DNA of 15,933 nucleotides, taken from IMG/VR virus record IMGVR_UViG_2667527666_000007; one strand, given 5' to 3'. Positions 12,001 to 15,000 of this stretch are shown here, one piece after another. Position 1 is the first letter of the stretch, and the number at the start of each line of letters is the position of its first letter. The position numbers were made by a program. The stretch comes from a virus. Its lineage: Duplodnaviria; Heunggongvirae; Uroviricota; Caudoviricetes.

Positions 12001-15000
12001 CACCGGACGGCGCAAATATACGAGCGCCTTTATCGAAGTGCCGCGCAAAAATGCTAAATCAACGACCGCCGCGATTCTGGCTAACTGGTTTCTGATTATG
12101 GAGAACGGTCAGCAGGATATTTACACCGCAGCGGTGAGCCGTGACCAGGCGAGGATCGTATTTGATGATGCGCGTCAGATGTGCATTTTATCCCGACCGT
12201 TACGCAGGCGGGTGAATATTCAGGCGCATAAGGTGATACACCCGAAAACCAACAGCCTGTTAAAGCCGCTGGCAGCAAAAGCGGCAACTATCGAGGGCAC
12301 AAACCCCAGTCTTTCTATCGTGGACGAATACCACCTACACCCCGACAACGGCGTATATTCTGCGCTTGAACTGGGGATGGGGGCACGTCCCGAAGGGCTG
12401 TTATTTGCCATTACCACATCGGGAAGTAACGTCGTTTCAGCCTGTAAGCAGCATTATGATTATTGCTGCCAGATCCTGGACGGCGAAGAGGTTAACGAAT
12501 CGCTTTTTGTGCTGATTTACGAACTGGACGACGAAAACGAGGTTGATGATCCGGAGATGTGGATAAAGGCGAACCCTAATATCGATGTTTCCGTGGATCG
12601 TGAAAAACTGGCCTCAACCATTCAGAAAGCGCGGGGTATTCCGTCGCAATGGGTGGAGATGATGACAAAGCGATTTAATATCTGGTGTCAGGGGACTACC
12701 CCGTGGATGGGTAATGGTGCATGGGCTGAGTGTGCCGGAACGTTCACGGAGGAAGATTTACACGGTCAGGAGTGTTACGCGGGGCTGGACTTATCATCAA
12801 CCAGCGATATTTCCAGCGTGTGCTATGCCTTTCCGGTCGGTAAAACCATTATGCTGATTTCCCGTCATTATCTGCCGGAGTTCCAGCTACAGAACCCCGC
12901 CAATAAAAACCGCGCTGTCTATCGTCAGTGGGCTAAAGCAGGCTGGATACGCACAACGCCTGGCGACTGCATTGATTACGACCGGATCAGAGATGACATC
13001 ATGCAGGACGCGGAGAAATTTAATATCAGGCTGGTGGGCTTTGATACGTGGAACGCCACGCATCTCAGAACGCAATTACAGGGGGCAGGTTTTGAGGTGG
13101 AGCCGTTCCCGCAAACCTACCTCAGATTCAGTCCGGCGGCGAAATCGTTCGAAGTTTTTGTTAACCGCAGGGTGATTGTGCATCGTGGCGATCCGGTGTT
13201 GTCCTGGTCGATGAGTAACGTCGTGATGCAGAGTGACGCGAACGCCAATATCAAGCCGAACAAGAAAAAATCACCGAACAAGATAGACCCGAGCGTGGCG
13301 GCGCTGATGGCGTTTGGTACATTCCAGGCAGAGCATGAGGATTTTGCTTTTGATATAAGCGACAGCCACCGCCAGAAACTGGAAGAATTTAGCGGGGTGT
13401 AATGAGGTCAGCAGCATGACAGAAGCCGAAATAACGGGATTAATCCGCCGCGTTGCCGGAATCAGCCAGCAGGCTGACGAACAGGCCACGCAGCCGGACA
13501 GCGTGACAGCCGAAAACTATGCGCGTGTTGTTGCTGAGGTGATGCGCCGTGATGGTATAGAACTTAATGGCGTGGATATGCGCAACATACGAACCAGAGT
13601 TCTTGAGTTGCTGGCCTACCGTCGCCGCGTGGAGATGTATCGGGAGAAGGAGAAAATAACGTACCACTGGAAGAAGCCGGAGCGGTTGCGGCGGTAACTG
13701 GTTGATATTCCCGACGGCCCAAAAATGGGTGGCTACATCCCTCGCTTCTGAGGACTGTTAACAAGCTGCCTGAAAGACAGTCACAAACTACGAAATTTTC
13801 GCAGTTTAACTAATGGTCAGCTTAATCGCTAACCCGCTGATATTTTCGGAAACCTCAATTTGAGGAAGTCGTCGCGGTAACTCGCTGAACTTTAAGCAAA
13901 GCGCAAAATTGCGCTTGCTGAATAATCATTATGATTACGCAGATGATTAAGGAATGACCGAAGGCGGAAATTCGCCTGTGGTTAATGGGGGAGTTGCAGA
14001 TCTGCAACTCGACCATGAAACTACGGAAACTACCCGTAGTTTGGGTAGTAAGAGTAACACCCAGATTTTGGGGCTTACTCGTGATACCCAAATTTGGGGT
14101 ATCGGTGGCAACCATAACGACTTTCGTTACGGTTGATGCTTTTACCCCATTGGGGGAAAGGTATTACGATAATCATAACACCTACCGAACAGGTAAAGCC
14201 CACCAGCCTGATTAACGTTTAACCGGAAAAAAATCCAGGTAGGTGGAGATCCCCATATCGACAGCAACGCCCCTCATGAATTGGCGTGCTTCCCCCTGGA
14301 AAGATGACCCGCCTGTATATTTCTTGTGTCTATTTGTTCCACGTTGTTTCATACAGTGCACCGAACGGTGTAGTCAATGGTGTAGTTAATTTGCGATTTT
14401 TGGCACTTTTTGCAGTGTTAATTATTTAATTAAATCAATGCCTTATCTTAATTTGGTGATAAAAGGGCATATTTATTCATCTTTCGGCGCAGAATGCTGG
14501 CGACCAAAAATCACCTCCATCCGCGCACCGCCCAGCATGCTCTCTCCGGCGACGATTTTACCCTCATATTGCTCGGTGATTTCGCGGGCTACCGCCAGCC
14601 CTACACCTTGCCCAGGGCGTAAAGTATCAACCCGTTGACCACGGTCGAAAATGACCTCTCGCTTGCTTAATGGAATACCGGGGCCATCATCCTCGACCAC
14701 AATATAGAGATGCTCGTCGGTTTGCCTTGCAGAAATTTCGACAAACTCGAGGCAATATTTACAGGCATTATCCAGCACGTTGCCCATCACCTCGACAAAA
14801 TCGTTCTGCTCACCGACAAAGCTGATCTCTGGCGAAATATCGAGAGAGATATTGACCCCTTTGCGTTGATACACTTTGTTCAGCGCTGAGGTGAGATTGT
14901 CCAGCAGTGGGGCGACCGGATGCAGCTCGCGGCTGAGCAATGTCCCGCCGCGCATACTGGCACGATGCAGGTAGTAGCCAATTTGCTGTGAAATGCGGCT

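Follow-up and report, generated by a model that had tools for sequence, protein, structure and literature searches.

A satellite-specific mosaic of extragenic palindromes, possibly REP/BIME-like in action, at the late-operon end of a capsid-forming phage-inducible chromosomal island

Repetitive extragenic palindromic (REP) sequences and bacterial interspersed mosaic elements (BIMEs) are thought to act by forming hairpins, which protect the 3′ ends of mRNAs and attenuate transcription, and by binding architectural proteins. Extragenic palindromic mosaics with sites for integration host factor (IHF) are, as a kind of element, already known. Here we describe a family of them found in satellites: it occupies the non-coding tail of a phage-inducible chromosomal island (PICI) represented by IMG/VR virus record IMGVR_UViG_2667527666_000007, the whole 15,933 nucleotides of which we refer to as ‘the window’. 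Like the RIP, RIB and BIME-1 elements of the REP/BIME group, the modules of this tail are extragenic, lie at the end of an operon, consist of imperfect palindromes in variable mosaics, include the IHF consensus, occur in multiple copies, and are individually dispensable. What is new is the family itself, that it is confined to satellites, that its IHF-plus-hairpin units stand in tandem, and that it is tied to one small open reading frame (ORF).

Judging from its ORF map and from an annotated homologous island, 97% identical, in Escherichia coli O26:H11 11368, the window is a capsid-forming PICI (cf-PICI) of the CP-933C/EcCIEDL933 type. Its packaging operon ends with a 93-aa ORF, and from there to attR extends a non-coding tail of ~740 bp, in which the most palindrome-dense region lies. 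This tail is island DNA, not chromosome, and it is filled, from the last packaging gene to attP/attR, by a satellite-specific extragenic palindromic mosaic: two or three IHF-plus-hairpin units (13690-13919), two further hairpins, a 123-bp cassette of four hairpins, and two hairpins of the type found in the island of strain EDL933. The parts are these:

13416-13697, + strand: 93-aa ORF of family phrog_1561 (PHROG 1561, E = 3e-56), function unassigned; last gene of the packaging operon
13690-13735, + strand: unit 1, GCGGTAAC-TGG-TTGATATTCCCGA, lying over the stop codon of that ORF
13695-13707, - strand: IHF-consensus match of unit 1, TATCAACCAGTTA
13716-13730: hairpin of unit 1, GGCCCAAAAATGGGT
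13740-13753: short hairpin, CCTC-GCTTCT-GAGG
13786-13808: short hairpin, AAACTACGAAATTTTCGCAGTTT
13826-13869, + strand: unit 2, CGCTAACCCGCTGATATTTTCGGAAAC followed by the palindrome CCTCAATTTGAGG (13853-13865)
13830-13842, - strand: IHF-like site of unit 2, TATCAGCGGGTTA
13874-13919, + strand: unit 3, a degenerate motif, CGGTAACTCGCTGAACTTTAAGC, followed by the hairpin AGCAAAGCGCAAAATTGCGCTTGCT (13895-13919)
13918-13942: hairpin, CTGAATAATCAT/ATGATTACGCAG
13957-13982: hairpin, ACCGAAGGCGGAAATTCGCCTGTGGT, homologue of the terminator-like hairpin downstream of the cassette in PICIs with lambda cos
13986-14108, + strand: 123-bp cassette, hairpins H1 to H4
13991-14010: H1, perfect 20-bp palindrome
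14020-14049: H2, alternative ACTAC/GTAGT hairpins with a 9-bp tandem duplication, GGAAACTAC
14052-14080: H3, GAGTAA..CCCA-GATTT-TGGG..TTACTC
14083-14103: H4, GATACCC-N7-GGGTATC
14109-14135: hairpin, CAACCATAACGA-CTT-TCGTTACGGTTG, shared with EDL933 and with islands that carry a Q gene (L004, L064)
14136-14164: hairpin, ATGCTTTTACCCC-ATT-GGGGGAAAGGTAT
14200-14207, - strand: Chi site, GCTGGTGG

The units are the most regular part of the mosaic. Among related islands, 0-7 copies of a ~48-bp unit fill the space between the 93-aa ORF and the cassette. The constant part of the unit reads GCGGTAAC-NNN-YTGATATTYYCGR, and behind it, at a distance from the TAA that is mostly 21-23 nt, stands a hairpin of 5-7 bp whose centre is A/T. 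Perfect hairpins of at least 5 bp occur in 61 of 81 distinct units, against 11.9 in shuffled controls, and 52 of those 61 start 21-23 nt from the motif. Their stems comprise 27 distinct sequences—GCGCA/TGCGC, GTGCA/TGCAC, GCTCA/TGAGC, CCTCA/TGAGG and ACTCA/TGAGT, for example. Self-complementarity is clearly maintained in the units, by many differing stems at a fixed place. The constant part also fits the IHF consensus, WATCARNNNNTTR, on the - strand, with the variable positions coinciding with the four Ns of that consensus. In 72 distinct tails, matches to this consensus number 124 on the - strand and just one on the + strand; shuffles yield 1.4. The window's own matches (13695-13707 and 13830-13842), which are predicted sites, fall outside the cassette, and the stop codon of the 93-aa ORF falls within the first of these units.

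As a variable, multicopy mosaic of extragenic palindromes with a predicted IHF consensus within it, then, the tail resembles REP/BIME elements. It differs from them in that its modules are confined to PICI-type satellites, where they follow one particular small ORF; in that its IHF-hairpin units form a co-oriented tandem array; and in that the cassette, in place of a single palindromic unit, has four hairpins in fixed combination. Membership of the REP/BIME group itself was rejected: there is no spread through the core chromosome, and the cassette lies in PICI-type islands in every context inspected.

Attention had first been drawn to 13991-14156, which an initial annotation of the sequence described as an unusually palindrome-dense, non-coding module. 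When the sequence was re-read and scanned for stems, all of the elements listed there were found in place. The 20-bp palindrome at 13991-14010, GAGTTGCAGATCTGCAACTC, is perfect, being its own reverse complement, and the two hairpins that follow are mutually exclusive, as proposed: the 7-bp stems ACTACGG/CCGTAGT (14020-14040) and ACTACCC/GGGTAGT (14029-14049) have ACTACCC in common. AAACTAC/GTAGTTT offers a further alternative pairing in the same H2 zone. Three ACCC...GGGT palindromes were also reported; they are present, but they are imperfect and unequally spaced (7, 7 and 3 nt). That at 14059-14074 has a core of only 4 bp (CCCA/TGGG), that at 14086-14100 is a portion of the longer GATACCC/GGGTATC hairpin (14083-14103), and that at 14145-14156 is CCCC-ATT-GGGG within the longer hairpin at 14136-14164. 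The density itself is real. With perfect stems of at least 6 bp counted, the 170-bp segments of highest coverage in the entire 15.9 kb all start between 13861 and 14001, and 400-bp bins across 13601-14400 hold 11 and 7 hairpins, against 0-3 in most others and 6 at most. As RNA, 13980-14165 has a minimum free energy (MFE) of -85.7 kcal/mol on the + strand and -75.9 kcal/mol on the - strand, and either strand has z = -8.96, none of 200 shuffles being as stable. The hairpin-dense zone is broader than was described, and begins at ~13716, right after the last ORF.

No convincing ORF fits the region, as had been said: frames of 76 aa (+) and 86 aa (-) have no significant Pfam (best E = 0.11) or PHROG match, the 76-aa frame is interrupted by TAA in most homologous copies, and a frame from ATGAAACTA stops after 26 codons, or after 13 in a diverged copy. 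A type I toxin or other small protein was rejected on the same grounds, its frames not being conserved among copies. Nor is the region native to the chromosome, for only 13% of E. coli genomes carry it. What survives of the initial interpretation is a non-coding, island-borne and highly structured sequence with true alternative folds; the proposed roles in recombination, partition or packaging find no support.

The cassette is the most widely distributed part of the tail. In a search of 5426 complete E. coli genomes, a query of 13760-14200 matched 1345, the majority of which match query 227-349 alone—that is, window 13986-14108—and in many genomes the cassette alone matches at 94-96% identity. 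It occurs in 706 of the 5426, in up to 6 places per genome, and matched no phage record searched. Its integration contexts are phoQ, tqsA, upstream of clpS, thiM, mppA, a tRNA-Ile gene, and the inside of a prophage capsid gene. Three types of packaging module accompany it: HK97-like HNH/TerS/TerL; lambda-like capsid/decoration/small-terminase; and a ClpP-capsid fusion with DUF1441. In all contexts but the tRNA-Ile island (L062), where no 93-aa ORF is annotated near the cassette, it lies downstream of that ORF and co-oriented with it, at 72 to 550 bp from the stop codon. Single hairpins shift independently: H1 is re-ordered in L064 and stands alone in L243, modules homologous to the 13740-13808 hairpins occur in a different order in EDL933 and L004, and several shortened or re-joined cassettes exist. 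The hairpins at 14109-14135 and 14136-14164 are common to EDL933 and to islands with a Q-antiterminator gene in the same zone, the latter hairpin with a loop that differs among relatives (ATT, ACT, GTT) and a stem that does not. Most cassette copies have the 9-bp duplication GGAAACTAC (14020-14040), which gives the H2 hairpin an additional alternative 5′ arm; those of the L061, L028 and L003 type are without it.

The EDL933 island aligns with the window at 13400-13709 and at 14107-14480, and has no counterpart of 13953-14106. For this island, EcCIEDL933, experiments have demonstrated induction, packaging into small capsids of its own, and transfer (10.1101/2022.09.08.507074). Because it is mobilized without a cassette, the cassette is not cos, the origin of replication, or the integrase (Int) arm sites; on the evidence of this comparison it appears to be an accessory, dispensable for excision, replication, packaging and transfer. 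The loss of the region from an otherwise identical island without consequence was named at the outset as the outcome that would count against a function. EDL933 comes near to it, in a tail whose flanks are ~88-91% identical to those of the window.

Two other kinds of known system were compared with the tail. The cos of lambda (cosQ-cosN-cosB, with IHF site I1) and that of Rpp-TerS PICIs resemble the tail in being non-coding, beside packaging genes, and furnished with IHF sites; the tail differs in that it has no cosN-like sequence, and its cassette accompanies terminases that are unrelated, while the prototype, which is packaged, lacks it. PICIs carry their own cos, and an exact lambda cosN in L002, an island with the same cassette, stands at 7624, before terS and 1.4 kb upstream of the cassette, in agreement with the placement of PICI cos sites relative to cosB in the literature (PMC6092414, PMC6739421). 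In the window, lambda cosN, GGGCGGCGACCT (up to 2 mismatches), was found only at 15291, inside phoQ, the cos sequence of HK97-type cf-PICIs being unpublished. A cis requirement for 13953-14106 fails as well, in view of the packaging and transfer of EcCIEDL933 (10.1101/2022.09.08.507074), and cos was rejected.

The arms of attP recognized by tyrosine integrases are the second kind. They resemble the tail in being attP-proximal and upstream of int in the circle, with the IHF consensus nearby, and GTAGT in H2 resembles one of the arm repeats, GGTGTAGTTAAT. The true arm repeats lie elsewhere, in the right-hand end of the island:

14367-14390, + strand: Int arm-type direct repeats, GGTGTAGTCAAT and GGTGTAGTTAAT, the attP P-arm sites; ~210 bp to the right of the palindrome-dense region
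~14438: attR, the island-chromosome junction, where homology to islands at other attachment sites stops
14433-14445, + strand: IHF consensus, AATCAATGCCTTA, at the junction of island and chromosome

These repeats switch with the integrase, whereas the cassette remains constant—L061, for instance, has another integrase and TGTGTGGTCAGT arm repeats, with its cassette unchanged—and the cassette lies outside the symmetric arm cluster. That cluster is seen in L320 (NZ_CP148328.1), an excised PICI recorded as a circular ‘plasmid’ of 10,790 bp; its attP is intact, and its genes run in the order int, primase, ClpP-capsid fusion, DUF1441 and 93-aa ORF. There, GGTGTAGTYAAT-GGTGTAGTTAAT repeats and TGTTCG repeats flank the attP core on both sides, and the cassette lies ~250 bp beyond the arm repeats, with a terminator-like hairpin between. 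Arm sites were rejected, and so was a replication origin: the direct-repeat families of 13750-14450 are weak and mostly two-copy (one has three weakly similar copies), and iteron-like repeats stand instead at 5283-5372, after the primase gene.

We tentatively prefer to read the cassette, and the tail as a whole, as an accessory module of hairpins, placed where the late operon ends, that works, by analogy, in the manner of REP/BIME elements. Forming hairpins, rather than being recognized as a specific sequence, would be what matters. The tail would be transcribed as the 3′ end of the late (+ strand) operon; its stacked stem-loops would block 3′-exonucleases and damp read-through, into attP and int in the circle, and into the convergent phoQ when the island is integrated. 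The IHF sites, if occupied, would contribute DNA bending, and the stack could include the 123-bp cassette as an optional, composite module. We place the tail at the end of an operon because a sigma-70 scan found no promoter-like site in 13300-14700, and promoter and terminator scans of three homologous tails found no promoter for the cassette; because the tail is co-oriented with the late operon; because in PICIs with lambda cos, L002 among them, the cassette is followed at 28 nt by a terminator-like, GC-rich hairpin whose own tail is T-rich; and because, in the circular form (L320), a hairpin of this sort separates the late operon and cassette from attP and int on the same strand.

Several observations weigh against this explanation. 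Intrinsic terminators and the small RNAs of 3′ untranslated regions (UTRs) likewise consist of stable, GC-clamped stem-loops after the last gene, but the hairpins of the palindrome-dense region have no U-tract; none within 13991-14156 is followed by a U-run, and an intrinsic terminator in the region was rejected. The link to REP/BIME elements is one of analogy only. Covariation in the four-hairpin model is not above controls, 454 of 500 shuffles scoring as high, at low sequence diversity. Transition mismatches in the cassette stems have no strand bias (9 G.U, 8 A.C), and neither have those of the hairpins in 77 distinct tails, with 21 G.T and 26 A.C. Of the 61 unit palindromes, 42 extend to a 1-2-nt centre, and this, together with the symmetry of the mismatches, has a strand-symmetric, DNA-level look rather than that of selection on one RNA strand. 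Finally, the loops and linkers of the cassette are conserved like its stems, which hints at sequence-specific recognition, something that a model of hairpins pure and simple does not need.

The cassette is unlikely to be free-drifting spacer, because it is conserved at least as well as the neighbouring coding gene: nucleotide identities of cassette and 93-aa ORF in the same island pairs are 0.96 and 0.87, 0.92 and 0.85, 0.85 and 0.84, and 0.76 and 0.73. Copies compared numbered 22 distinct at first and later 50, a metagenome pattern scan having raised the number with little added divergence. Among them the centres of several hairpins vary while the stems are largely kept: the loop of H1 is GATC, GATT or AATT, the centre of H2 is CC, AG or CT, and the loop of H4 is AAATTTG, AAATAAA or AATATTA. 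H4 has one compensatory change, A-T to C-G, with an A.G intermediate, in two upstream sequence contexts. In the four-hairpin model, 96% of cells are paired, and this is the only pair to have changed on both sides; an alternative, long-hairpin (MFE) model is no better supported. Diversity is low for covariation, because searches with the 93-aa protein gave no distant relatives: a scan of genome contigs gave one locus, the homologous proteins listed are at least 88% identical, and relatives in viral contigs are at least 84% identical.

Another reading is that the cassette, together with the terminator hairpin downstream where there is one, is a regulatory RNA, either a stable, structured small RNA of ~120-180 nt released from the 3′ UTR of the late operon or a cis-acting switch between the H2 folds, read perhaps by an RNA chaperone or by the basic-tailed 93-aa protein. 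Extreme stability of the fold speaks for it, and the cassette is more stable on the + strand (-58.0 kcal/mol) than on the - strand (-49.8 kcal/mol), a difference not seen in the array of units. So do the truly exclusive alternative helices, the conserved loops and linkers, the terminator-like hairpin 28 nt downstream in lambda-cos PICIs, the constant orientation relative to the operon, and a ProQ/FinO-family protein encoded by some related islands. Against it, covariation lay within that of shuffled controls at the low diversity of the copies, and an Rfam cmscan of the whole window (E <= 1), a check suggested with the initial annotation, gave no match in 13700-14440; its one match, to a microRNA and spurious, is at 5283-5372. 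Islands that lack the cassette yielded no diverged full copy to a covariance model built from it, no target complementarity was identified, and the hairpin of terminator type precedes the cassette in the window instead of following it. With real alternative folds but no Rfam family, no promoter, a single compensatory pair, and no G.U strand bias, a structured non-coding RNA is a candidate that we consider rather unlikely. Literature searches for small RNAs in CP-933C/OI-51 and for Esr41, which resides in OI-43, a different island, gave nothing for the locus. Binding of CsrA by a ‘sponge’ was also rejected, as 603 nt contain 11 GGA, compared with 9.5 in shuffles, and a scan for tRNA and tmRNA found none.

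A further reading, proposed in the initial annotation, is a multi-site double-stranded DNA target for a dimeric protein of recombination, partition or packaging. The product of the 93-aa ORF, AlpA/Xis, a terminase subunit or a host factor might be that protein. H1 is a perfect palindrome, symmetry often reaches the palindrome centre, the stem mismatches are strand-symmetric, the cassette is tightly linked to one small basic protein, and the adjoining IHF-consensus sites suggest a nucleoprotein complex. But a sequence-specific dimer is unlikely because half-sites vary from palindrome to palindrome—there are 27 distinct ones—and the spacing of the ACCC/GGGT sites is unequal, one of these sites is lost in a diverged copy, and the centre of H1 varies as well. 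Moreover, the cassette is the same in islands that differ in integrase, arm repeats and AlpA protein, and in islands that differ in terminase; it is at least ~210 bp outside the symmetric cluster of attP arm sites; no cosN-like sequence is nearby, the cosN of L002 being elsewhere; no partition NTPase is annotated in homologous islands; and the mobilizable prototype does without the cassette altogether. The predicted structure of the 93-aa protein is of low confidence and has no significant match to a known fold. All told, a dimeric protein of this kind seems quite improbable. Comparison by eye with XerC/D sites (dif/cer), sigma-54 sites, oriT nick sites, Fis sites and LacI-type operators found none that fitted in spacing or sequence.

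In lambda-cos PICIs the cassette and its terminator form a block between two direct Chi sites (8996-9003 and 9293-9300 in L002), and in a natural variant without this block the junction falls exactly at GCTGGTGGG, just as a deletion between the repeats would have left it. Module boundaries generally coincide with Chi or Chi-like GGTGG sequences. A Q-family antiterminator gene lies inside the hairpin mosaic of related islands (L004 6204-6596; L064 1912-2304), and in L003 an abortive-infection (Abi) gene comes right after it; on account of these insertions the tail can be regarded as an insertion zone for accessory genes. H1 with its 5′ flank (window 13981-14011; L146 4760-4790) matches, in 26 of 30 nt, part of a KilA-N-domain gene of Stx2/SfII-type lambdoid prophages, where the stretch codes for ..ELQICNS..; more than 64 viral contigs carry the prophage version. 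Because the match lies within a coding gene, H1 at least may be a captured gene fragment.

Taken together these observations could mean that the tail is debris, without function, at a hot spot for accessory genes: fragments rearranged by recombination, Chi-stimulated or illegitimate, palindromes that hairpin-templated (quasi-palindrome) correction has kept perfect, and a cassette common through hitch-hiking with successful islands. A mosaic order that is unlike in every lineage, boundaries and a deletion junction at Chi, an H1 sequence shared with a prophage gene, a dispensable cassette, the absence of strand bias, and the insertion of Abi and Q genes in the same zone all fit. Debris should not, however, be conserved as well as or better than the coding gene beside it when the same island pairs are compared, nor should its hairpins keep a fixed offset from the unit motif far in excess of shuffled expectation, nor should an IHF-consensus pattern be kept while its four N positions vary; and the same cassette recurs across at least seven integration sites and three types of packaging module. 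On balance we think it rather unlikely that the tail is debris.

The 93-aa ORF deserves a word of its own. It is annotated as hypothetical in homologous islands, has no Pfam match, and ends in a basic C-terminal tail, ...HWKKPERLRR*. Across every PICI type examined it is 63-87% identical, and always the final gene before the hairpin tail; in the collections searched it is essentially limited to PICI-type islands, with a single weak phage match. Its predicted structure has a pLDDT (predicted local distance difference test) score of 67, and a Foldseek search against the PDB gave nothing below E = 0.5. A long shot is that the co-oriented array of units and the cassette make up a dedicated cis-acting system of Gram-negative phage satellites, with this neighbouring protein as its reader, or else that the cassette is a new satellite-specific class of structured RNA. 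The protein might then be a structure-specific RNA- or DNA-binding factor that gates late transcription across attP into int in the circle.

Capsid-forming and classical PICIs are intensely studied, and the PICI literature that we searched mentions no non-coding or intergenic element besides cos sites. The tail that follows their packaging operon, ~0.4-0.9 kb long, is not random spacer; it is assembled from palindromic modules, limited in number and reusable, together with IHF-consensus and Chi sites, common to satellites with different integrases, capsid genes and terminases, and the 123-bp cassette alone is present in about one in eight E. coli genomes. If the modules govern the 3′ ends of late transcripts, or read-through into int, they would offer a means of controlling how satellite genes are expressed; if their main role is to mark recombination junctions, they would help to explain how Abi and Q genes enter the hot spot. 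In practice, the palindrome-dense region need no longer be counted among the candidates for cos, ori or att sites.

The remainder of the island is organized as follows:

1-1230: integrase, followed by regulators (ORF map and annotation of the homologous island, as for the features below unless stated)
3366-5198: primase, followed by single-stranded DNA-binding protein (SSB)
7014-8219: major capsid protein
8259-8831: prohead protease
8833-10044: portal, followed by connectors
10672-11112: HNH
11401-11757: P27-family small terminase subunit (TerS), Pfam Terminase_4 match
11741-13402: large terminase subunit (TerL)
14473-15933, - strand: phoQ, a chromosomal gene, convergent with the late operon of the island, which is inserted on its downstream side; right flank as in EDL933

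Between the arm repeats and the attR core of L002, at 9583-9610, a strong promoter-like sequence, TTGACA-16-CATAAT (11 of 12 matches), points out of the island; the window has only a weaker counterpart, near 14400. In the circle this predicted promoter would face int, which may mean that int is mainly expressed from the excised or incoming form. Iteron-like GTTCACC/GTGAACA repeats at 5283-5372, just 3′ of the primase gene, are probably the island's origin of replication. Thirteen Chi sites (GCTGGTGG) are present in the 15.9-kb window: eight on the + strand, at 885, 4877, 5757, 6232, 8675, 8803, 9807 and 13030, and five on the - strand, at 4194, 6091, 8308, 10252 and 14200. Chi averages ~1 per 4.5 kb in E. 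coli; the several-fold excess over this figure may protect the linear or rolling-circle DNA of the satellite from RecBCD. In phages of the HK97 type, cos lies in the gap between HNH and terS, and by analogy with that layout the corresponding gap in the window, 11113-11400, is the likelier place for the cos of this island.

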